From Candidatus Scatosoma sp. (GTDB lineage Bacteria; Bacillota; Clostridia; Christensenellales; Borkfalkiaceae): 64,000 nt of DNA. The notes beneath the pieces were generated by a model, which was not told the origin of the DNA, searched no databases, and was given only the letters and a program-made list of their open reading frames with translations. The stretch covers positions 1,026-65,025 of the forward strand of contig JAZRQY010000012.1 of NCBI GenBank assembly GCA_045650185.1. The letters run 5' to 3'. A program made the position numbers and the translations under genes. Positions 4,363-53,544 of this stretch are shown here, in pieces (position 1 is the first letter of the stretch; every line of letters begins with the position of its first letter).

Positions 4363-4728
4363 TGGTGGAGGTGGTGAGAATTGAACTCACGTCTTACTCG
4401 GCTGCCAAAAAACTTTCTACATACTTAGTCTGTCTACTTTTCTTGTTCCCGCAACGCGGACAAACACGCTTTGCGGTACGCAGGTGGCTGAATACTCTTT
4501 TAAAAACACCACCCGATTCTTAAAAGAGTTTTCCGTCTAATTGACGCCGCGACCCTAACCGACGGATAAATTAGGCGCGACGTTTCGTTAATAAACGAGG
4601 TTACGCTGCAAGAGCGTAGTTTGCATTATAATCTGCATTTAAATTTAGGTGGAATGTTTTATCGTAGTCACTCCGTCTACGGTATGCTTATTCTTTCGCT
4701 CACCGGCAATCGAACCCGGTGCACCCCC
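4363..4728 (-). ncRNA. ssrA: tmRNA (transfer-messenger RNA)
   Basis: Minus-strand read: 5' GGGGGTGCACCGGGTTCGATTGCCGG ... and 3' GACGTGAGTTCAATTCTCACCACCTCCACCA (T-arm plus acceptor plus CCA). The 5' GGGGGTG pairs with the 3' CACCTCC. The internal tag reading frame is ...GCAGATTATAATGCAAACTACGCTCTTGCAGCGTAA, giving (A)DYNANYALAA-stop. Confidence 0.92.
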
Positions 4729-43020: not shown

Positions 43021-43023
43021 CTG

Positions 43024-43068
43024 TGGTTGAGGCGACGGGACTTGAACCCACGACCTTTTGGTCCCTAA
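43024..43068 (-). repeat. 45-bp direct repeat: displaced 3' half of the tRNA (att site, distal end of island)
   Basis: tggttgaggcgacgggacttgaacccacgaccttttggtccctaa is identical to 53468-53512. Confidence 0.9.
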
Positions 43069-43165
43069 ATATCTTTCGATATGCCACACCCATGCTGAAA
43101 GCCTTTAAAATAAAGGAACTTTACATAATCCGCGAATTAATTTTAGAGTATCAACAGCCGTTTTG

Positions 43166-43194
43166 TTGACCTATTTGACCTAACTGTTGACCTG
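43166..43194 (+). promoter_or_regulatory. three direct TTGACC(TA) repeats (putative integrase arm-type sites, distal end)
   Basis: TTGACCTA at 43166, TTGACCTA at 43175 and TTGACCTG at 43187. The same motif occurs twice at 53379-53398. Confidence 0.55.
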
Positions 43195-43543
43195 ATTATA
43201 TTATACCAAATCCGCGCAAAAATGTCAAGAAATAACCGCCGCCGCAACAGAAATTCTTCAGAAAACATACAGCTTTTGAACACCTTTCAAGCATCCCAAA
43301 AGCATCCTAAAAACAACTCAAATACCTCCCACACGAATCTTTATTGCACGTTTGTAACATCTTTCAATAAAGATTTTTTTATCTTTGAAAAAACTTTTTA
43401 AAAATTTTTTATTGAAAATAGTAAAGTACAATTTAAGTGACAGGTTTTACTAATAGACATGTTATACTATGAGTGTAAAAAGGTTGAGGCAAGAGCTCAC
43501 CGAAACCTTGTTACAAAAATAAAAAAATACGGAGAATTCAAAA

Positions 43544-43903
43544 ATGAATCAGAAATTTAAAGTAAACTTTGTCACCAGAACAATTGAAGTATCCACCTCT
43601 TTCGCAAAGAAAGCAAGCATCTATGGCTCAACGGAATATCAAATGCTTACCGATGCGCAAAAGGCGCACCCTGAATATACGCTCGATATTCAAAAGCCCA
43701 AGAAAAGCGTAATTAAAGGCATCGACCATGAGTTTATGCGCAAATATATTATGGCTCATGATGAAGATAATAAGTTGATGAATGCGTTTGATAAACTCGT
43801 TGCCGAGAAGCTTTCTTACCCTGAACTTAAAGCTTGGTTTGTTGATAAATACCCTGTGTTTAAAGAATGCAAAACAAGAGCAGATTGGATTTTAGCGGCG
43901 TAA
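43544..43903 (+). CDS. island hypothetical protein, paralog 1
   Basis: 119 aa with a good RBS (ACGGAGAA). Shares S(I/L)YGS.EY.ML..A....P.Y and a C-terminal (K/A)WF...(F/Y)P(E/V) pattern with the next ORF. Confidence 0.6.
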   Translation: MNQKFKVNFVTRTIEVSTSFAKKASIYGSTEYQMLTDAQKAHPEYTLDIQKPKKSVIKGIDHEFMRKYIMAHDEDNKLMNAFDKLVAEKLSYPELKAWFVDKYPVFKECKTRADWILAA

Positions 43904-43931
43904 TGAAAATTAAAAAAGGAGAAATAATAAT

Positions 43932-44330
43932 ATGAAAAATACGCTTAGAATTAATCACAAAAACAACCAACTAGTTATGGATAGAGAATTTTCTATCAAG
44001 TCCTCTTTGTACGGCTCGCAAGAGTATAATATGCTCCAAGCGGCAAGACAAGATTATCCCACCTATCAGGTAGTACGTAAAACCATCAAGAAAAACTCGC
44101 AAAAAGAAGCGTTTGACGGCTTAACCTACGAATATATGGAACGTTATATGGAAAGATATAACACACCTGCGGAAACGCGCCAAAAGTACCAAGAAATGCG
44201 TTTTATGGCAAACTGCCATTCCATTCGCTATCCCGTTATCAAAAAGTGGTTTTTGGAAACATTCCCCGAAGTAAAAGATTGGGGTAAAAAGAAAGAAGAA
44301 TTTGCGGCGGACGCCGCCCTGAGCGCATAA
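43932..44330 (+). CDS. island hypothetical protein, paralog 2
   Basis: 132 aa, RBS AAAGGAGA. Paralogous to 43544..43903. Confidence 0.6.
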   Translation: MKNTLRINHKNNQLVMDREFSIKSSLYGSQEYNMLQAARQDYPTYQVVRKTIKKNSQKEAFDGLTYEYMERYMERYNTPAETRQKYQEMRFMANCHSIRYPVIKKWFLETFPEVKDWGKKKEEFAADAALSA

Positions 44331-44342
44331 AGGAGGCTAATT

Positions 44343-44702
44343 ATGACTGTACCCAACCAAAAAATCATCAAAATTCATAAACCCAATATTCAAAAAGACC
44401 CTTTTGTTTCTTTAAACCTTGATATCATGGGAAAGGTTTATAAGGATTTGGCGTGTAATGCCTACACCTTTTATCTTTATCTATGCTTATGCGGTAACAA
44501 GGATGGATTTTCTCTTGAGTTTTCGCCACAACATATCAAAGATAGATTTGGTTTGCCTACCTCTACAGCGCAAGACCAATTCAAGAAATTGGTTGCTAAA
44601 GGTTATTTAGTACCAAAAAATGAAAACAGTAATATTTATGATTTTTATTACGAACCCGAACACTTGAAAGTGAATCCATCCGAAATCACATTTGATTTTT
44701 AA
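44343..44702 (+). CDS. winged-helix DNA-binding protein (phage/plasmid replication-organiser-like)
   Basis: 119 aa, RBS AAGGAGG. FSPQHIKDRFGLPTSTAQDQFKKLVAKGYLV looks like a wHTH. Confidence 0.5.
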   Translation: MTVPNQKIIKIHKPNIQKDPFVSLNLDIMGKVYKDLACNAYTFYLYLCLCGNKDGFSLEFSPQHIKDRFGLPTSTAQDQFKKLVAKGYLVPKNENSNIYDFYYEPEHLKVNPSEITFDF

Positions 44703-45003
44703 GCGGACGGCGTGCAAAAAAAGTTTGAATCGTACGCCATGCAAAAAATCCGTTTGACGTTTTAAGTTGTGGAAGCCGTTAAGCCCTAATTGTAAGACCT
44801 TATAGAAATATATAAATAAAAAAGGTGATAAATAAAGAATATATATATACGCAATAGAACCGCTTCCATTCCCCCTTAGGATGAAAAATTAAGCAATTTA
44901 GGAAAAGCCTCTCATGAAAAATTTAATATTATATAGAACGTAAAAACCACCGTTGACGCGGTGGTTTTTTCAAGAGAAAACAAGAATAAGGAGATTATAT
45001 AAT

Positions 45004-45330
45004 ATGAATAGAGGTTTTTTTCATAGCGACCCTGATGAATTAAGAATTTTAGGACGAATTTCTGACGAAATGTATTACATGATGAAAAGGCGTGAAGCCG
45101 CCGCAAACTTTGACGTGGAAGAACAAAAGAGATGGATGCGTTTAGAGCTTTTAGATAAACGTCAAAAGCAACAGAAAGAGGCTGAAGAAAGAGAAAAACA
45201 GAGGCAAGAGAAAGCAAAAGCAAAGAAAGAACAAGAAAAAATTATTAAGGAAGCGGTAGAGAAAGACTTGCCTAAACAGATTGAAAAGGAATTACAAAAA
45301 GAAATTCAAAAAATTTTTTCTAAACATTAA
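45004..45330 (+). CDS. hypothetical coiled-coil Lys/Glu-rich protein
   Basis: Start at MNRGFF after AAGGAG and just downstream of a terminator hairpin (44943-44972). The upstream part of the track ORF overlaps that hairpin. Confidence 0.5.
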   Translation: MNRGFFHSDPDELRILGRISDEMYYMMKRREAAANFDVEEQKRWMRLELLDKRQKQQKEAEEREKQRQEKAKAKKEQEKIIKEAVEKDLPKQIEKELQKEIQKIFSKH

Positions 45331-45570
45331 AAAGAAACGAGTCGGCAAACGCCGCGACAAGTCGCGCCGCCGCCTCGTTTCTTTTACGCTTCGCGACAAA
45401 AGCACTCCAGAAAAAAAAGGAATGCAATAGACACTATTGAAAACGGCTCCGTTTTTGAAACGAAAATAACATTTCAAAATTGAACAGCCCACACCTATTG
45501 GGAAATAAGCAAAATTTTTATTTTTTCCCGAAATAATCCCCCCCCCTACAAGGTAAGAGCCGCCACCCAC

Positions 45571-45599
45571 TTGCCAAAAGAAAAGCTTTGTGATATACT
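45571..45599 (+). promoter_or_regulatory. sigma-70-type promoter of the WYL regulator gene
   Basis: TTGCCA, 17 nt, TATACT. A C9 homopolymer lies 25 nt upstream. Confidence 0.5.
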
Positions 45600-45630
45600 A
45601 TACTTATTAACAAAAGGCGGCAGCTATGTT

Positions 45631-46713
45631 ATGAAACGATTTAATCAAAAATTAAAAGCTTTTTTGATTTATCAATATTTAATGGAAAATACCGATGAAA
45701 ATCATTGTCTTTCCACAACGGATATTTTAGACTTTTTAGAGAATGACATGGGCATCAAAGCGGAGCGCCGCTCCCTTTATACTGATATTGATGAAATCAA
45801 TAAAACTCTTTATGCCCTGCGGAAAGATATTTCAATTGAAGAAGCTGAACTTGAAATTGAAGAAAAAGAAAATGACAAGTGGCAAACCATCGTTTATGAC
45901 GGGAGTAGAAAAGGCTATTATGTCCGCAAGCGCGATTATAAACTGAACGACGTCAACGCTATTGTGGAATGTATTTATGCGGCAAGATTCATTACGGAAG
46001 AAAAGGCGAAACAATACGTCGATATTATCACGCGCAACCTTGTCAGCATCCACCAAGCGGATGAAATTCAGCACGAAGCTCTGCTTTTGGATAGAGGGAA
46101 AGCCATCAATCCGCATGTGTTTGAAAACGTTCAAAAGATATACAAGGCGATGCGCGTAAAAGCAGGGAAAGAAAAACATGTTCCTGAAAAGATTTCTTTT
46201 AAATACGTAGCCGCCGCACCCAAGGGTAAAACAACAGAAATGCGCAAAGGCGAAAGATATGTTGTAAGTCCCTTTAAATTGATAATCAATGACGGCAATT
46301 ATTATTTGCTTGCTTTTGATGAAAAGAAAGCCGCCGCACGCACTTTCCGCGTAGACAGAATGAAAGAAATTAAGCCTTTAGGAATTCCAAGGGAACGCAT
46401 GGATGAACTGTTTTCTGTTGACAAAACCGCCTATATTAAACAACATTTTGGTATGTATAGCGGCAAGGTAGAACGCGTTACCCTTAGATTTATCAATAAG
46501 CTGTTGGATACAGTATATGATAAATTCGGTAGGGATAATCTTTACTATACCCAAGTGGATGATAGGCATTTTACCATTCAAGTAGAAGTCGCTGTTACCG
46601 ACCAATTTTTCGGTTGGTTGTGTAGCTTGGGTCGTACGGTAAAAGTTATGTCGCCGCCGCACGTTCAGGAAAAATACAAAGAACATTTGGAAAAAATTAA
46701 AAATATGTATTAA
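45631..46713 (+). CDS. HTH + WYL-domain transcriptional regulator (BrxR/CapW-like architecture)
   Basis: Start at MKRFNQK. N-terminal wHTH (LSTTDILDFLENDMGIKAERRSLYTDI). WYL core (VVSPFKLIINDGNYYLLAFDEKKAAARTFRVDRM). Confidence 0.8.
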   Translation: MKRFNQKLKAFLIYQYLMENTDENHCLSTTDILDFLENDMGIKAERRSLYTDIDEINKTLYALRKDISIEEAELEIEEKENDKWQTIVYDGSRKGYYVRKRDYKLNDVNAIVECIYAARFITEEKAKQYVDIITRNLVSIHQADEIQHEALLLDRGKAINPHVFENVQKIYKAMRVKAGKEKHVPEKISFKYVAAAPKGKTTEMRKGERYVVSPFKLIINDGNYYLLAFDEKKAAARTFRVDRMKEIKPLGIPRERMDELFSVDKTAYIKQHFGMYSGKVERVTLRFINKLLDTVYDKFGRDNLYYTQVDDRHFTIQVEVAVTDQFFGWLCSLGRTVKVMSPPHVQEKYKEHLEKIKNMY

Positions 46714-46785
46714 ATTTATTGCTTTTATTAAGAATATTTTTCGTGTAATGTGAATATACTATAAGTAAAATTATTTAAGCGTAAC

Positions 46786-46971
46786 ATGAAAATGAAGATC
46801 GAACATAAAGTAAAAATGCAAATATATACATTAAAAAAGTTGAACGATATTGATTTGGGTGATTTGAATTTAGTTCGACGAATAGCCCTTAAATTAAAAA
46901 TGTATGAATTAATTGCTTTTATTAATCAAAATTGGCAAGAGTATCTTGATTTTATACAAACAATAAAATAA
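46786..46971 (+). CDS. small hypothetical protein (61 aa)
   Basis: ORF ending immediately before a strong bidirectional terminator. No family recognised, and it may not be expressed. Confidence 0.3.
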   Translation: MKMKIEHKVKMQIYTLKKLNDIDLGDLNLVRRIALKLKMYELIAFINQNWQEYLDFIQTIK

Positions 46972-46998
46972 AGCCTTTGGTTTTTCCAAAGGCTTTTT
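46970..46998. terminator. bidirectional intrinsic terminator between convergent island genes
   Basis: aaagcctttgg-ttttt-ccaaaggcttttt. Confidence 0.8.
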
Positions 46999-47002
46999 GT
47001 TT

Positions 47003-49030
47003 TTAGAACTTAGAGCTATTTAACATTGATACTCGATCTATGCCAAATACTTTTTTATAATCTGCAACGCGTTCATTAATTAATTCTTGGATATTAGTAA
47101 TATCTGAATATTTGGTCGCATCATCAGGATTAATTCCTGTAACTCGTAATACTTCGCTAAATAACCATGTATAAGGTCTAAGTTCTTCTAACGATTTATC
47201 ACTTTTTGCAATATTTTCAAGCTTGGGCAAGAGAGCTTTATTTCCAAGGCTTTCCATTAATTTTTCATCTATTGTTGTTACATTGTTGAATTGAGCTTGG
47301 GCATAAATATGATCAATTTCATATACCGCACTTGCCCCCTCGCCATCAAAAGAAGGTCTCATTTTCTTTAAACAATAATAGTGATAAATAATGCCTTTAT
47401 CAACATTAGAGTTAGAGCCACTTGCAAATGCATCAATAACTTTTTCCCATTCCTCAAAAGAGACAGCAACAAAGCGATCGCTAATATTTTGAAGATCTCT
47501 AGCCAATCTTGAATCAGCGGAGCCCGCCCAAAGACGACTACTATATTCATACAATAAACGATCGCATAGAATTACCGCATTTTTTTGGTATTCGCGCAAT
47601 TTTACTTGGTTGTTTTTGGTCGGTTTACCTAATTCGACCCAATTTTTATAAATTAAAGCAGAGAACTCAAGCGCAACCGAATTACCCATTAAGGACATGA
47701 TCGATTGCTTCCAAGACATTAAGAATTTAAAGTATTCACAATCATACAATAAATCCATTGCTATATTAAACTCACGGATAAATGCCTCTACATCTTTATT
47801 CCAATCCAATCTTGCTTTTCGTTCATTTTCCAAATCTTTTACAGAGTTACTACTAATACCGCCTATATAGATTGCGCTAAGCAATTTAAATCCAAGTGTT
47901 AACTTACGCGTAAATAAAGCCTGCGTTGTATTTTTGTCTGTTAAGTCGATTTTGGTAAATACCAAATTAGCTTTATCAATTCTAGAAAGTAGCGTAGCGC
48001 AAACGTCCCAACGTACTACATTGTTTGGAACATTAATTCCAAGGAAGTTATATAATTCTTGGGCTGATGCGCGGATTTCGTCGCTAGGATTGGATATTTC
48101 CATATTCCAAAAAGGTCTAGCAGATAATAATTCCTCCGCTGTTAAAGGTGCGCCGCCGCCATTAACAAGAGAGAAAATATTTTGTGCATCTAAAGGGGAT
48201 GCATCTATTAATCGAATTAATCCAATTCGAGCGTTTATAATAATCTCATCTGTCTTCCGAATAGTATTAAAACACTTCTCAAAATAAGCCCAATGGTCAG
48301 TAATAAAATTATCTAGTTTTTTAATATTTCTATCATCTAATCTATAACGCTTAATTAGATAATTGGTAAAATCTGCTTTTTCTGTTTCCTCTTCATCAAT
48401 TCTACTTTTAATAAATTTTTTCAGCTTTATGGGATCAATGATATATTCCCCATTAGAATATACAGAATATTCCAATTCTGCAATATCAATGATTTTGGAA
48501 AATTTAAACATGCCCTCAAAACGATTAGACCCACCGTATTTTGAATGAACTAAAAGAATTAAATCCAATAAAGCATGCATATTTTCGCTTTGAGTTTCTG
48601 CATCAAAAGTTCTACCTTCACAAACCTCATCGCTATTTTCTATAAGTGCATCTATGTCCGCAGCATCTTCCGTGGATTTATTAAACTCAGATTGTAAATA
48701 TTCGCTAATTTTTTCGGAAAAACGATCTCGAACTTCATCTTCAGGCATATTGGTTTTTATACCAATAAATCGTTGTGCCCATCTATAAACTTCGACAGGA
48801 TTTTGATACATGGTAATGAGCGCATTACGTCTTTGACGTCCGTCTAATAAGAATTTTTTCGTTCCTGTTTCATTAACAATTACAACCCCGATAGGGTATC
48901 CTTTAAAAACACTGATCGATAATTTAAAGTTGTCGATATCCTTCCATGTTGCTTTTCGTTGAAAACGAGGTAAATCAATTTTATTGTTTAAAAAATAACT
49001 TGTTGTATTTTCAGATATACCGAATGCCAT
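47003..49030 (-). CDS. DUF262 + DUF1524 protein (GmrSD / SspE / BrxU-like NTPase-nuclease)
   Basis: N-terminal DUF262 motifs LPRFQRKATW and LLDGRQRRNAL. C-terminal His-Me/HNH-like DUF1524 (YEIDHIYAQ...LGNKALLPKLENIAKSDKS). AGGAGG RBS 13 nt after the upstream stop. Confidence 0.85.
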   Translation of the reverse strand: MAFGISENTTSYFLNNKIDLPRFQRKATWKDIDNFKLSISVFKGYPIGVVIVNETGTKKFLLDGRQRRNALITMYQNPVEVYRWAQRFIGIKTNMPEDEVRDRFSEKISEYLQSEFNKSTEDAADIDALIENSDEVCEGRTFDAETQSENMHALLDLILLVHSKYGGSNRFEGMFKFSKIIDIAELEYSVYSNGEYIIDPIKLKKFIKSRIDEEETEKADFTNYLIKRYRLDDRNIKKLDNFITDHWAYFEKCFNTIRKTDEIIINARIGLIRLIDASPLDAQNIFSLVNGGGAPLTAEELLSARPFWNMEISNPSDEIRASAQELYNFLGINVPNNVVRWDVCATLLSRIDKANLVFTKIDLTDKNTTQALFTRKLTLGFKLLSAIYIGGISSNSVKDLENERKARLDWNKDVEAFIREFNIAMDLLYDCEYFKFLMSWKQSIMSLMGNSVALEFSALIYKNWVELGKPTKNNQVKLREYQKNAVILCDRLLYEYSSRLWAGSADSRLARDLQNISDRFVAVSFEEWEKVIDAFASGSNSNVDKGIIYHYYCLKKMRPSFDGEGASAVYEIDHIYAQAQFNNVTTIDEKLMESLGNKALLPKLENIAKSDKSLEELRPYTWLFSEVLRVTGINPDDATKYSDITNIQELINERVADYKKVFGIDRVSMLNSSKF

Positions 49031-49043
49031 AACTTCCTCCTAA

Positions 49044-49733
49044 TTAATAAATTATATTATTGAAAATATTGGTAAAATCGTATTCTTTGGAACTTTTTAA
49101 GACATTTAAAACTTGTTTTATATTCGTTCTACGCCTTATATAAGTAGTTCTCGAAAGATCATATAAATAAGACTCTAGCTCAAAAGTGCCGTTTGATGAT
49201 TTTAAAATAACTTGTCTTATTAATTTATTTCTAATGATTAGACGATGCAATAATTGCTCTTTTCGCTCTTTTTCATATTCTTGAAATACGTATCCTATTG
49301 CGGATAAATAATACATTTTTTCATGTTTAAATGTTAATCCTAAGAGCATTGCGGTTTTTAAATGATTTTCCCCATATTTGGTCAAAGCACCATCTTTTCG
49401 CTGAATATCATCATCTAATAACATGCGCCCCATATCTATAAAATTAGTTCCTAAAGGATTCCTATTATAAAGTTTAGAGCAAACTCTTGTTGTTGCATCT
49501 ACGAAGTCGCTGAATTGAAATGTATCAGCCGCCGCAATTGCTTCACGAGGTATATTATTAAAAATATAATCTAGAAAATTAATGAGGGGAATATTTATAA
49601 TAACATCTAAATAATTTTTTAATTCTTGTTTATGGATAATAAACTGATTATCTAAAACAAACTGATTAAAGCATCGATCAATATCGAAAGAAAAGAATGT
49701 TTTCAAAAGATTCTTTTGCTCATCATTCATCAT
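49044..49733 (-). CDS. unknown 229-aa protein, middle gene of the radical-SAM/DUF262 operon
   Basis: Its start ATGATG overlaps the stop of the radical SAM gene (ATGATGAATGA). No motif recognised. Confidence 0.65.
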   Translation of the reverse strand: MMNDEQKNLLKTFFSFDIDRCFNQFVLDNQFIIHKQELKNYLDVIINIPLINFLDYIFNNIPREAIAAADTFQFSDFVDATTRVCSKLYNRNPLGTNFIDMGRMLLDDDIQRKDGALTKYGENHLKTAMLLGLTFKHEKMYYLSAIGYVFQEYEKERKEQLLHRLIIRNKLIRQVILKSSNGTFELESYLYDLSRTTYIRRRTNIKQVLNVLKSSKEYDFTNIFNNIIY

Positions 49734-50889
49734 CTTGCGCCTCCGTTAATGTAAAACTTTCATATCTTAAATCGAAATATTGTTTTGCGATGTCGGGATT
49801 TTCTTTTTCAAAATCCATCATTGCACGCATTGTTGAACAATATCCATCGGATTTGTGAAGCTCTTGATTCGCATTACAAAATTGCCTGAAACTCATTTTT
49901 TTAAAAATACTAGGTTGGTTCCCCCAACGCGCCAATGCAACATAGAGACTACGATATTTTGACTCTTTCCAAGGGGAGTAGCTTTTATCTTGATAGCGCA
50001 TTATATAGGGAAGGCATTTGTAACGCATTAGTAAAGCGAGTCGTTTGAATGCATTTTCTATATCCTTCGCATCTGTACTTTCAAATCCTACTAGAACATA
50101 AAATTTAACACTTGTAGAATTTGTATATTTGCGAATGATTTTCAACTTTTTGTGGATTAAATCATAGTCGGAAATATTATCAAAAGCAAAAGTATAATCG
50201 CCGTCATAACGAACATTAAATAAAATTTTAGCTCTTTCTTCCGTTATTAAACGCTCATCTAAGCCTTGCTTAAATTTAAATGGTTTTTTTGTTGAAATTA
50301 AAGTATTTAATGCCTCTTGCCAATGAGGGCACCCCAAAAAATTGTCATCAAGCAAGCAAATTTTTTTGCGTGTTGGATCATAAAATTCTTCTAGCGGACT
50401 ATGAAGAAATACTCGATCATATTTTTGATTTACGCAAAATTTGCACTTCCTAAAACATCCGCGAGTGATAAAACCTATACTATAATCTGTATATTCCTTA
50501 AATTGTACTCTAAAAGATTTTTCTTTAAATTTAGTACCCTGTATAGCTTTTGCTTTAGCTACTTCATTTTCGATCCATTCATCATATAAGTGATAATCGG
50601 GCATGTGATGCTCAATTTCGTCGGGAAGATTAGGAGCTTGATCAAAATAAAATCCTGTCCCGCCCATGTGTATCTTTTCAGAAGCTTGTACCCATGCTGG
50701 GATGGGCGTGTCGGTAAAGACTTTTGAAATATATACCTCATCATAAGAATGAATATCGTCATAGGAAAGCAATAAATGGACATCTGCGCCTTGTTCTTTC
50801 CAATAGCCTGATATTTTTTCGCAAGCTAAATTAGGGAATCGATGTTTTTGACGTCCTAAAAGATCTGCATCAATTATACCAATTTTCAT
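49723..50889 (-). CDS. radical SAM enzyme with N-terminal Rossmann/B12-binding-like domain
   Basis: Start at MKIGIIDADLL (Met17 of the track ORF), after AAAGGTG. GFITRGCFRKCKFCVNQ is a CX3CX2C motif. 388 aa, with no SPASM-type C-terminal Cys cluster. Confidence 0.8.
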   Translation of the reverse strand: MKIGIIDADLLGRQKHRFPNLACEKISGYWKEQGADVHLLLSYDDIHSYDEVYISKVFTDTPIPAWVQASEKIHMGGTGFYFDQAPNLPDEIEHHMPDYHLYDEWIENEVAKAKAIQGTKFKEKSFRVQFKEYTDYSIGFITRGCFRKCKFCVNQKYDRVFLHSPLEEFYDPTRKKICLLDDNFLGCPHWQEALNTLISTKKPFKFKQGLDERLITEERAKILFNVRYDGDYTFAFDNISDYDLIHKKLKIIRKYTNSTSVKFYVLVGFESTDAKDIENAFKRLALLMRYKCLPYIMRYQDKSYSPWKESKYRSLYVALARWGNQPSIFKKMSFRQFCNANQELHKSDGYCSTMRAMMDFEKENPDIAKQYFDLRYESFTLTEAQDDE

Positions 50890-50919
50890 AATAGCACCTT
50901 TAAGGAAATATGTATGGAC

Positions 50920-50948
50920 ATTATACATTAATTTCATGCATTCGTCAA
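50920..50948 (-). promoter_or_regulatory. sigma-70-type promoter of the radical-SAM operon
   Basis: Minus strand reads TTGACG, 17 nt, TATAAT, in the 74-bp gap between the Fic stop and the radical SAM start. Confidence 0.65.
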
Positions 50949-50963
50949 TACATTATCCATTTT

Positions 50964-51851
50964 TTAATTCAACACTTTCAAGTATTCATCTAATCTTGCG
51001 TTTAAGTATTCCGCAAAAAGTTTTGCCATTTGCGACAGGTCGCCGCGTACATGGTAGGCATCAAAAGCATCATAATAACGCATGCGGTCGGTAAATTTAA
51101 TATCAATAGGCGGATACCCTGCTTTCATCAATTCCATATTGACAAGCAATCTACCTGTGCGCCCATTGCCATCAATAAAGGGATGAATGCCTTCAAATTC
51201 AAGATGGAAGCGCGCCAATTTATCAACAATGTTTTCTTCGCTGTTTTTATTGAAATTTAATACAAGCTCCGTCATTTTCGGTTCGATAAGATAGGGTTGC
51301 GGCGGCGTATGCTGTGCGCCCATAATACGAACAGGTACGCGGCGGTAAATGCCTCTATCGTGGGGCTTATCCGCAAGCACAAGCGTATGGATTTGCTTTA
51401 TCACATATTCCGACAATTCAGCCTTTTCCTTTACCAAGTCGCAAATATACCAAAAGGCTTCTTTATGCCCGACAGCTTCCATGTGGTCTTTTAAGGGTTT
51501 TTTATCAATGGTAAGCCCACGCAAAACCATGTCCGTTTCTCTCAACGTCAGCGTGTTACCCTCAATCGCGTTGGAGTTATAGGTGTATTCAATCATGAAA
51601 TCTTCATACAAACGCTGAACTTCACCTTCCGTTAAAGGGCGGCGGCTATCAAGTTCTTTTTTCTTTTGGTCGATAAGCTCCAAAAGGCTTGCTTTGGTTT
51701 TAATTCTGCCGTCCGCAGGCTTTTCCGCGCCGTCAGGAATCACCCAAACTTTCCCATACTGAAAAACACCATCGATTTGACCGTTGGCGCAGAGAACACG
51801 AACACGTCTTTCAGAGATTCCCCAAAGTTTTGCCGCTTCTTTTACATTCAT
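50964..51851 (-). CDS. Fic-family protein (AMPylase-type) with N-terminal HTH
   Basis: Canonical Fic motif HPFIDGNGRTGR. N-terminal inhibitory-helix-like motif SNAIEGN. MerR/excisionase-like HTH (VKEAAKLWGISERRVRVLC). Confidence 0.88.
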   Translation of the reverse strand: MNVKEAAKLWGISERRVRVLCANGQIDGVFQYGKVWVIPDGAEKPADGRIKTKASLLELIDQKKKELDSRRPLTEGEVQRLYEDFMIEYTYNSNAIEGNTLTLRETDMVLRGLTIDKKPLKDHMEAVGHKEAFWYICDLVKEKAELSEYVIKQIHTLVLADKPHDRGIYRRVPVRIMGAQHTPPQPYLIEPKMTELVLNFNKNSEENIVDKLARFHLEFEGIHPFIDGNGRTGRLLVNMELMKAGYPPIDIKFTDRMRYYDAFDAYHVRGDLSQMAKLFAEYLNARLDEYLKVLN

Positions 51852-52165
51852 AAATGATACACTCCCAATTATGTATTATAGCTATTATATACCTTTTGCG
51901 GAATAATGTCAATATTTACGCGGAATATTTATTGCTTGTTTATAGATTTTTTATACTTTCTCTTAAAAAATTATATTTTTTAAAGTGTTTTTAACATGCC
52001 GCCGCCCCAATTTGCAAGTATTTTGCATTATAATTCCATCTTTTTTCAACATTTTTTCAACGAATTTCTTGCAAAAGTTGTTAATAGTTGTATTAAAGGA
52101 ATAAAAAGTTGATTAAAAGCTGTTAAATGACATAACTTTCAATCAACTTTTTTGTTGGCTTTTGC

Positions 52166-53335
52166 TTACCAATTAAAGGCGTTTGCGGTGGCTGTTCGCA
52201 TGTTTGCCATGTCCGATTTTACATAGAAGTTTAAAGTAGTCGAAGCATCCGCATGTCCTAAAATATCTTGTACACTTTTTATATCCGCGCCGCTTTGCAA
52301 GAGCAAGGAAGCGCAGGTATGCCGCAAGTCATGGGGCGACATATCAGGTAAACCTATCTTCTTCATAAACTTCTTCAAATGGTCGGTTGCAAAATCGGGG
52401 TGATGGGGGTCAAAAGGTGAAGTTTCCGAATGGAATACAAAGGCGGTCGCCGCCGCATTTTCTTGGCTTTTATACTCTTGCAACAACTTAATCATCCCAT
52501 CCGTCAAAGGAATTTCACGAATCCCTGCATCCGTTTTCGGTAAACCTATGACAATTCCGCTCATGGAAGTATAAGTTACACTTCGCTCTATGTGAATAGA
52601 TTTATTGATAAAATCCACGTCTTGCCATTGAAGCCCGAAGCATTCACCGCGGCGAATCCCTGTTGTCAAAAGTAAGTTATACATGGTTTTCAGCCACAGC
52701 GGAAGCTTTTGAATCTCTTGTATGAATATTTGCGTTTCCGCTTTAGAAAGAGCTTTTACCTTTTGCTTTGTGGTTTTAGGCGTTTCCACTTTTGCAAGGG
52801 GATTTTTCTCTATGTAATCAAGCTTCAACGCATACCCGAAAATCAAACTCAAAGTGCCGTAGTGGTGGCGAATGGTTTTCGGGGCAAGCGGTGTGTTATA
52901 TCTTGTCCGATAAGTATTTTTCAGATAGGCAAGGTAGCGTTCAATATGCTTATCCGTAATATCCTTTAATTTCTGCCCTTCAAAGTAGGGAAGAATGATT
53001 TTCAGCATGCAAGAGTGAAATGTAATTGTCGTTGCTCGAACTTCTTTTGGATTGATTTTCTCAGGAAACCAAACCTTTTGAACAAAGTCATTAAACAAAA
53101 TTTCATTCGGTTTAAAAGCTTTTCTTTCTTCTTCGTACCTTGCGGCGGCTTCGTATTCAAAAAGGATTGCTTCCTTTTCTGCAAGTGCAAGAAGCTTCTT
53201 TTCCGTCATATCCTTTTCAGGAATCCAATTCTTACAACGGAAGATTTGCTTGCCGTGTTCATCTCTGCCAAGGTATGCTTTCAGCTTGACAGAAATAATT
53301 TTGCCGTCTTTTTTGTTGGGGTAAATAGTTGCCAT
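52166..53335 (-). CDS. int: tyrosine-type site-specific integrase
   Basis: 389 aa with the catalytic pattern TGIRRGE ... HDLRHT ... LGHAD ... NFYV. Adjacent to the tRNA att site. Confidence 0.92.
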   Translation of the reverse strand: MATIYPNKKDGKIISVKLKAYLGRDEHGKQIFRCKNWIPEKDMTEKKLLALAEKEAILFEYEAAARYEEERKAFKPNEILFNDFVQKVWFPEKINPKEVRATTITFHSCMLKIILPYFEGQKLKDITDKHIERYLAYLKNTYRTRYNTPLAPKTIRHHYGTLSLIFGYALKLDYIEKNPLAKVETPKTTKQKVKALSKAETQIFIQEIQKLPLWLKTMYNLLLTTGIRRGECFGLQWQDVDFINKSIHIERSVTYTSMSGIVIGLPKTDAGIREIPLTDGMIKLLQEYKSQENAAATAFVFHSETSPFDPHHPDFATDHLKKFMKKIGLPDMSPHDLRHTCASLLLQSGADIKSVQDILGHADASTTLNFYVKSDMANMRTATANAFNW

Positions 53336-53378
53336 GTTTTTCCTTCCTTTGCGGAAGATGTTAAAAGCTCTTTTTTTG

Positions 53379-53398
53379 TTGACCTAAGTGTTGACCTA
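53379..53398 (+). promoter_or_regulatory. two direct TTGACCTA repeats (putative integrase arm-type sites, int-proximal end)
   Basis: TTGACCTA at 53379 and 53391, between the int start and the tRNA. Same motif and orientation as at 43166-43194. Confidence 0.55.
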
Positions 53399-53467
53399 AT
53401 TGCAAAAAAGATGCAAAAAGATAAAACAAAAAAGCTCTGAAACCCTTTAGTTTCAAAGCCTTTTCCG

Positions 53468-53544
53468 TGGTTGAGGCGACGGGACTTGAACCCACGACCT
53501 TTTGGTCCCTAACCAAACGCGCTACCAAGCTGCGCTACGCCTCA
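53468..53544 (-). tRNA. tRNA with Pro-like body; anticodon loop reads UUAGGGA (apparent anticodon AGG)
   Basis: Minus strand: TGAGGCG-TA-GCGC-AGCTTGGTA-GCGC-G-TTTGG-TTAGGGA-CCAAA-AGGTC-GTGGG-TTCAAGT-CCCGT-CGCCTCA-A-CCA. The cloverleaf was folded by hand and CCA is encoded. Confidence 0.8.

Follow-up and report, generated by a model that had tools for sequence, protein, structure and literature searches.

In the DndCDEA-PbeABCD and SspABCD-SspE defence systems, a DNA-marking module is combined with a separable restriction module, and PbeABCD is found alone, with DndCDEA, or with cytosine methylases (PMC10853773). In this work we analysed a stretch of 64,000 nucleotides (the window; all unlabelled positions refer to it) from Candidatus Scatosoma sp. 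(GenBank assembly GCA_045650185.1, contig JAZRQY010000012.1, positions 1,026 to 65,025 of the forward strand), which carries a three-gene operon encoding a predicted radical S-adenosylmethionine (SAM) enzyme (g1), a small partner protein (g2) and a putative nuclease with the GmrSD/BrxU layout (g3). With a probability of about 0.5, we read this operon as the 'GmrSD-type' member of a horizontally mobile, modular and undescribed defence family whose invariant core is g1-g2. At similarly even odds, the core would be a radical-SAM-based module that marks DNA and reads the mark, with exchangeable restriction modules attached to it in a manner analogous to Dnd-Pbe and Ssp-SspE.

The proposed family would share the logic of these two systems, with a mark that is postulated here. 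Sister loci carry bona fide homologs of PbeA and PbeC directly behind g1-g2, whereas PbeABCD is absent from the window, and g3 has the DUF262 and His-Me layout of SspE but no SspE sequence match in the PDB. PADLOC returned no Ssp match for g1, g2, g3 or the neighbouring Fic and WYL proteins (the integrase and the small open reading frames (ORFs) of the same island were screened only against PHROGs). Neither the Dnd and Ssp modification proteins (PADLOC) nor desulfurase or phosphoadenosine phosphosulfate (PAPS) reductase domains (Pfam) were found in g1, g2, Fic or WYL. Because there is no match to their modification proteins, the operon is neither an Ssp nor a Dnd-Pbe system. A likeness to phosphorothioate systems appears elsewhere in the family, since many g2-family proteins carry the sulfur-binding domain (SBD) that reads phosphorothioate DNA.

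From the side of the nuclease, the closest described proteins are GmrSD, BrxU and HEC-05. g3 shares with them the GmrSD_N domain, a C-terminal DH...N...N motif, a weak likeness to BrxU 7p9k and a HEC-05 match, and its more distant homologs stand alone in restriction-modification (R-M) islands, as type IV enzymes do. The difference is that in the window, and in seven or more further loci, a radical SAM enzyme and its partner are joined to the nuclease through translational coupling or a common operon.

From the side of the enzyme, the only radical SAM proteins named as acting on DNA are spore photoproduct lyase and gp53 of phage M6 (PMC8989533). g1 differs by an extra N-terminal flavodoxin-like domain and has its best structural matches in MiaB, RimO and AprD4 and not in spore photoproduct lyase; the phage copies of g1 lie in DNA-modification gene clusters. 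Radical SAM proteins also occur inside anti-phage systems, as viperins (pVips) and as OpnA, which together with PHP and PRTase forms the reported system Ophion. g1 differs from both in architecture and partners: PHP and PRTase genes are absent, and PADLOC gave no viperin match for g1 or for 20 diverse homologs. An earlier note on this DNA had named viperins as the only radical SAM enzymes in phage defence, a statement that has to be widened to include Ophion, whose architecture is unrelated to that of g1.

In its combination of a conserved catalytic subunit and a fast-diverging partner, which can be fused to the putative 'writer' (g1-g2) or to a nuclease (PLD-g2), the family also resembles type I R-M systems, where HsdS works with HsdM and HsdR. 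On the other hand, the two show no kinship in sequence or fold, and g2 tracks the effector type instead of displaying the usual exchange of target-recognition domains.

No model of PADLOC-DB v2.0.0, Pfam-A or NCBIfam matches g1 or g2 at threshold, the NCBIfam matches being at chance level, and the g1-g2 pairing is described nowhere in the literature searched, the 2020 ABC-ATPase paper (Krishnan et al.; CxC/Pbe, MTaX1) lying outside the reach of that search. The suspicion of the earlier note that no described system couples a radical SAM enzyme and a small partner to a GmrSD-like nuclease thus agrees with PADLOC, Pfam, NCBIfam and the literature searched. No cellular radical SAM enzyme with a link to defence is known to act on DNA. 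Modification-coupled modular restriction is known; what appears to be new is the putative marking module, the g1-g2 core, which is combined with five or more kinds of effector, one of them present in the window.

The g1-g2 core and its effector modules

The g1-g2 pair is found again and again in many phyla. The g2 domain was recognised with an iterated g2 profile in 53 of the 91 g1 loci fetched, nine of which encode g1-g2 fusions. The pair comes first in the operon in most loci, and the order or orientation of g2 is altered in L059, L063 and L075 and in the loci designated type C below. Type A, the type of the window, has a g3-type nuclease of 672-676 aa (also in L001-L003, L008, L013 and L024); in L032 the g3-type gene is divergent and lies 65 nt upstream of g1. 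In type A2 the place of the nuclease is taken by a shorter GmrSD_N protein of 603-614 aa (L014, L015).

Type B (about 27 loci) consists of PbeA (full-length PADLOC match, 1e-197), a protein of about 58 aa, PbeC (6e-86) and a protein of about 143 aa, which is PbeABCD, the 'CxC ABC ATPase-DndE' system; g1-g2 fusions whose genes overlap PbeA occur here. Type C (about 12 loci) encodes a ParB-like protein, a protein of 135 aa, an SNF2 helicase (DpdE/DrmD-like), another ParB-like protein and, as final gene, g2, which leaves the effector genes enclosed between g1 and g2. In other loci the g2 domain is part of a PLD nuclease whose gene converges with g1 (L059, L063), or a SIR2-HATPase protein is present (L073).

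The two core genes behave differently with respect to these types. In the clade with g2 as a separate gene, g1 is 66.1% identical within and 66.7% identical between effector types, against 31.9% and 25.2% for g2. When neighbours are judged by g2, the nearest one has the same effector type for 33 of 35 loci; judged by g1, it does so for 23 of 35. These figures suggest a conserved catalytic core in the case of g1 and, in that of g2, a quickly evolving partner that moves together with the effector. The earlier note had treated the trio as the conserved unit. The three genes are indeed syntenic in the type A loci named above, with the divergent arrangement in L032, but g3 stands alone elsewhere, and the conserved unit is g1 plus g2, with the nuclease as one of at least five interchangeable effector modules. 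Since g3 homologs and PbeABCD also stand alone, the effectors are portable modules, which g1-g2 recruited repeatedly.

A DNA methyltransferase related to the phage-clade seeds was found within 6 kb in no defence-type locus, so that g1-g2 is the one candidate for self-marking that came to light in such loci. No Dnd modification genes were noted in three Pfam-annotated type B loci, the other type B loci not having been screened.

Proteins of 554, 476, 536 and 764 aa without a Pfam match, encoded in L035 (6376-14780), L069 (11166-12776) and L041 (13752-16046), are possible further effectors; the same set includes a protein of 1786 aa with a HerA/DUF87 ATPase domain.

The operon and its three proteins

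The three tightly packed minus-strand genes described in the earlier note have the sizes given there. The first two overlap by 11 nt, with the stop of g1 and the start of g2 within ATGATGAATGA, and g3 starts 13 nt past the g2 stop with AGGAGG in front; g2 is predicted to be translationally coupled to g1. The promoter-like site pointed out in the same note matches at 11 of 12 positions and is the top sigma-70-like match within 46500-51200, a region in which the number of promoter-like sites (17 found, 23.8 expected from shuffled sequence) is not above expectation. Because an upstream in-frame ATG of the g1 ORF at 50937 lies inside the promoter spacer and the homologs start at MKIGIID, the 388-aa product is the right one. 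To this account we add a terminator-like hairpin behind g3. Promoter, three tightly coupled minus-strand genes and terminator form one operon (Table 1).

Table 1 Features of the operon, of the island that carries it and of the remaining window.
Feature	Position	Strand	Description
g1	49723-50889	minus	radical SAM enzyme (predicted), 388 aa from MKIGIID; N-terminal flavodoxin/Rossmann-like domain and radical SAM core
g2	49044-49733	minus	partner protein, 229 aa; novel helical fold (predicted), possible winged-helix element
g3	47003-49030	minus	675 aa; GmrSD/BrxU layout, N-terminal DUF262 (ParB-like NTPase), C-terminal His-Me/HNH-type motif (IDH...N...N)
Promoter-like site	50920-50948	minus	TTGACG-17-TATAAT, in the 74-bp gap after the Fic gene; predicted from sequence
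Intrinsic-terminator-like hairpin	46970-46996	both	bidirectional, 11-bp stem, T-runs on both strands; after the g3 stop
Integrative island	43023-53512		10.4 kb at tRNA-Pro; the operon is its main cargo
Direct repeats	43023-43068, 53467-53512		46 nt, perfect; island ends
tRNA-Pro (agg) gene	53468-53544		3' part forms the 46-nt repeat
Tyrosine integrase	52166-53335
Fic protein	50964-51851		with excisionase-like helix-turn-helix; PADLOC PDC-S04 4e-41, SoFic 3e-31
WYL-WCX regulator	45571-46713		convergent with the operon
61-aa ORF	46786-46971		between the WYL gene and the terminator
tmRNA gene	4363-4728	minus	tag peptide ADYNANYALAA

The GCFRKCKFC sequence of g1 places a CX3CX2C motif at C145, C149 and C152, and this cysteine triad is 100% conserved in 87 homologs, distant phage copies included. 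The Pfam radical SAM model PF04055 reaches only 12.8 bits (E 0.14) with g1, under its cutoff of 29.5, and gives sub-threshold matches at the same place, around the Cys motif, in 10 of 20 diverse homologs (best E 0.0029). PHROG 9298, 'radical SAM domain protein', matches at 2.9e-57. An AlphaFold2 (AF2) model with a mean confidence score (pLDDT) of 88 has MiaB 7mjz as its best Foldseek match in the PDB (E 2.4e-6, probability 1.0), followed by MtaB, AprD4, RimO and SuiB, while neither g1 nor g2 matches anything in the PDB by sequence, as single sequences or as profiles. On the basis of Cys motif, predicted fold and PHROG 9298, g1 is in all likelihood a very divergent radical SAM enzyme, as the earlier note had assumed, although the Pfam match stays below threshold. 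The Rossmann-like N-terminal domain that had been read from the sequence reappears in the predicted fold as flavodoxin/Rossmann-like. That this domain binds cobalamin is a lead suggested by D7xD9xxG12, S55xV57 and G76G77 when set against DxHxxG...SxL...GG.

About 45 residues of g1 are invariant, and its identity across phyla is about 66%. Outside the triad no cysteine is universal, and the sole N-terminal one, C23, is present in 78% of the 87 aligned homologs; neither TRAM nor UPF0004 domains were found in g1 by Pfam. A MiaB-type methylthiotransferase (MiaB/RimO/MtaB) was considered and rejected, with the auxiliary-cluster cysteines absent and no TRAM domain detected.

Homologs of g1 form 6099 clusters. 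The 120 best of these show identities of 70% or more, with Bacteroidales, Clostridia and Lachnospiraceae as named sources. A scan of representative genomes, one for each of 185,579 species, gave 217 loci, whose record titles include Bacillota, Fibrobacter, Verrucomicrobiota, Kiritimatiellia, a spirochaete family and Flexilinea, as well as metagenome-assembled genomes labelled Gracilibacteria and Nanoarchaeia. The distribution is patchy over these phyla, and the gene is found on islands, plasmids and phages. Most carriers with a name in the source records belong to taxa that are known to be anaerobic and that were sampled from gut, rumen or digester, which is consistent with an oxygen-sensitive Fe-S enzyme. 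The fold likeness to MiaB, MtaB and RimO could also be that of a housekeeping radical SAM enzyme, for example in cofactor or tRNA maturation, that became the neighbour of a nuclease by accident. So few and scattered loci, their mobile settings, the lack of an NCBIfam or Pfam family, the features missing for a methylthiotransferase and a GC content of 31-33% in a host of about 50% all contradict such a role, and distribution, composition and context effectively refute it. The earlier note had raised a housekeeping role with accidental adjacency as an objection; g1 is no such enzyme, and it occurs on islands and phages in many phyla.

The AF2 model of g2 (pLDDT 92.8) has no significant Foldseek match in the PDB or in BFVD; its weak structural matches (best E 0.8) are mostly winged-helix proteins, including the BpuJI recognition domain, IclR and E2F. 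FQFS, KYGENHxKxA, RLxxRN and STYxRRxxN are its conserved motifs. An exhaustive HMMER search with the g2 profile gave 595 representative clusters. Among the top 150 representatives, about 60 are long proteins, with the g2 domain N-terminal in nearly all, and 24 contain one or two copies of an SBD_Hga-like sulfur-binding domain, which matches PDB 8H0L, a structure with phosphorothioate DNA (2.7e-7 by single sequence, 1.4e-28 by profile). Three of the SBD-bearing proteins were looked up (L100-L102). Each is the last gene of a type-C gene set, and in L100, the sole one of these contigs that reaches the operon start, the first gene is a g1 homolog of 36% identity.

In P0295, P0303, P0360, P0326 and P0345, g2 is joined to Sigma70 region 2/4-like sequences, the alpha-CTD (C-terminal domain) of RNA polymerase or DUF4357, often with a sulfur-binding domain. 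An EVE-domain reading of two C-terminal repeats of P0345 was not confirmed by PDB search.

For g3, the motifs LPRFQRKATW, DGRQRRNAL, EIDHIYAQ and GNKALLPKLENIAKSDKS are all present. Pfam matches its N-terminus to GmrSD_N (PF03235) at 6.9e-18 and does not report GmrSD_C (PF07510); the DUF262 and His-Me motifs named in the earlier note are there. DGRQRRN is invariant in 41 homologs, as are D573, H574, N597 and N606 in the C-terminal region. The C-terminal part is matched by PADLOC HEC-05 (2.4e-7) and Orf5, and one homolog, P0246, has HNH_4 in precomputed Pfam. Against BrxU 7p9k, the sole match of g3 in sequence searches of the PDB, the g3 family profile aligns weakly (E 0.038), in three co-linear blocks that cover the His-Me motif.

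Full-length g3 homologs without an adjoining g1 or g2 were found at 65% (P0198, in L096), 60% (P0200) and 43-45% identity (P0211, P0214, P0217, P0243). Their settings are typical of restriction genes: between hsdS and hsdR in a type I locus, next to an AlwI R-M system, behind genes for Vsr and a pair of C5 methylases, or alongside toxin-antitoxin and Fic genes. g3 is thus not an obligate partner of g1-g2. Such solitary homologs in R-M and defence islands are also what one would expect if two independent systems stood side by side in the window, g3 being an autonomous type IV enzyme like GmrSD or BrxU, and g1-g2 a separate defence, anti-defence or selfish module that happens to share islands and operons with other defence genes. 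PbeABCD, too, occurs alone, and GCA_023663945.1 has a stand-alone g3 homolog (L096) and a type-C g1 locus (L016) on different contigs. We nevertheless consider independence rather unlikely. The genes overlap or nearly abut between one promoter and one terminator, and the linkage persists where it is rearranged, as in the divergent L032, the bracketing of type C, the PLD-g2 proteins and the g1-g2 fusions overlapping PbeA. Moreover, g2 co-varies with the effector type, and among loci with enough flank no g1-g2 pair was seen without a candidate effector nearby.

Proposed DNA marking and its alternatives

In the favoured reading of g1-g2 as a DNA-marking module, g1 would use its [4Fe-4S] cluster and SAM in a radical reaction that places a mark on the DNA of the host. 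The fast-evolving g2 would be a DNA-binding subunit that targets g1 to DNA, reads the mark, or both, and couples g1 to the effector. g3 would act as an NTP-dependent DUF262/His-Me nuclease, the mark separating self from invading DNA, which is attacked, a logic comparable to that of SspE with SspABCD and of PbeABCD with DndCDEA. We infer here DNA as the substrate, DNA binding by g2, the direction of the self/non-self logic and the chemistry of the mark.

That g1-g2 installs a mark which the nuclease reads, an idea of the earlier note, is a hypothesis with strong comparative support from three sides: partners like Pbe and SspE, SBD fusions, and phage copies among methyltransferases. Modules known to work with DNA-marking systems (Pbe with phosphorothioation or methylation, the SspE layout with phosphorothioation, and SNF2 helicases like DpdE and DrmD) recur as partners of g1-g2, which by analogy argues for marking, and the modelled likeness of g1 to MiaB, MtaB and RimO, which modify nucleic acids or proteins, points the same way.

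Copies of g1 were found in at least 484 IMG/VR viral loci and 17 GenBank phage records, and g2 in one viral contig only. A DNA methyltransferase abuts g1 in 34 of the 81 viral g1 loci fetched and lies within 3 kb in 49 of the 81. In the prophage clade of the genome scan, ParB-N6/N4 and/or C5 methyltransferase genes overlap or abut g1 in about 20 of about 25 loci, and the large terminase follows 2-5 kb downstream in about 13. These phage copies, without g2 and between DNA methyltransferases, would mark phage DNA for protection.

In the prophage-type g1 loci L045, L047, L051, L052, L055, L085 and L088, the stretch from the DNA methyltransferases to the large terminase contains one or two genes related to Amidoligase_2; in L045 (12352-14053) a 285-aa protein without a Pfam match (E at most 0.01) precedes a 285-aa Amidoligase_2 protein. 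These genes may belong to a cassette for the hypermodification of phage DNA.

A different function for g1 is suggested by the radical SAM proteins of known defence, which act on free nucleotides (viperins; proposed for OpnA of Ophion). The layout of a conserved generator with swappable effectors is, in addition, that of CBASS, Thoeris and Pycsar. g1 might then make a viperin-like chain terminator or a second messenger, which g2 relays to the effectors. We regard such a nucleotide-analogue or signalling system as unlikely: the effectors have no common sensor domain, g1 has neither a viperin match nor the viperin architecture, and g2 is found fused to a sulfur-binding domain and to a PLD nuclease, partners that suggest a link with DNA. 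DNA marking also fits better than signalling because the phage copies are embedded between DNA methyltransferases.

Several observations weigh against DNA marking by g1-g2. The trees are neighbour-joining trees with no support values. As g3 homologs and PbeABCD occur alone, the effectors do not strictly need g1-g2. Relatives of GmrSD that occur by themselves are, as a rule, type IV enzymes that depend on a modification, and this logic needs no self-mark. With no significant structural match for g2, its role as a DNA-binding protein is drawn from weak winged-helix matches and fusion partners. Some g2 proteins are moreover fused to Sigma70 r2/r4-like regions and the RNA polymerase alpha-CTD, which would also fit a transcription-linked role. 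These fusions, together with the winged-helix matches and the usual first position of g1-g2, would also agree with a regulatory or sensor module, in which g2 binds DNA or RNA polymerase, g1 senses redox state or SAM, and the pair switches on downstream defence in the manner of BrxR or WYL proteins. We consider this quite improbable, as about 66% identity, an invariant Cys triad and some 45 invariant residues typically belong to an enzyme whose substrate is fixed. Phages, moreover, carry g1 in hundreds of copies with neither g2 nor downstream defence genes, and the island has its own WYL regulator.

As to the chemistry of the proposed DNA mark, it is tempting, given the links to SBD proteins and Pbe, to think of a mark that contains sulfur or lies in the backbone. 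Here, too, there are points to the contrary: since no cysteine outside the triad is universally conserved, a MiaB-type auxiliary cluster or sulfur insertion is unsupported for g1, which does not have the auxiliary-cluster cysteines of sulfur-inserting radical SAM enzymes. A sulfur-binding domain was found neither in the window nor among 100 loci outside L100-L102. We put forward only tentatively that g1-g2 is a new DNA writer in cellular genomes, whose covalent mark, perhaps sulfur-containing or in the backbone, would be read by SBD-type, Pbe and SspE-like modules; phages would have captured the enzyme for counter-defence.

In L088 (12428-13083; Oscillospiraceae phage NatCom_21982), an annotated PAPS reductase directly follows the large terminase, about 5 kb downstream of g1. 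DndC and SspD belong to the PAPS reductase superfamily, and the gene may bear on the sulfur hypothesis.

The integrative island and what the family may mean

The operon is carried by an element that the earlier note had described as an AT-rich, tRNA-integrated island with Fic and WYL genes, a description that the direct repeats, the tRNA-Pro gene, the integrase and the GC content (31-33% in the operon, about 50% in the flanks) confirm. Three small plus-strand genes are also on the island, the third of which weakly resembles a phage replication initiator. The 61-aa ORF behind the WYL gene matches phrog_8677 (1.9e-10), a phage family without known function. A Fic gene (8692-9759 of L096) also adjoins the stand-alone g3 homolog P0198, so that a g3-type nuclease is again next to Fic, here with no g1-g2. 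The tmRNA gene of the window is unrelated to the operon.

The operon is real and well delimited, and the mechanism proposed for it is, on comparative grounds, a well-supported hypothesis. If g1-g2 marks DNA, it would be a new enzyme class with probably a new chemical mark, of interest for prokaryotic epigenetics and for self/non-self discrimination. As a DNA writer it would mark DNA by a new route that relies on neither Dnd nor Ssp. Neither spore photoproduct lyase nor gp53 of phage M6 is part of a cellular immune system. The swapping of modules (GmrSD-type, PbeABCD, SNF2/ParB, PLD, SIR2) is a natural experiment that could clarify how Pbe and SspE-like modules sense a mark, and, through the link to sulfur-binding domains, the question can be put to a direct test by existing phosphorothioate and nucleoside mass spectrometry. 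The family is large and widespread, and it points to a new means of marking or reading DNA in anaerobic bacteria.

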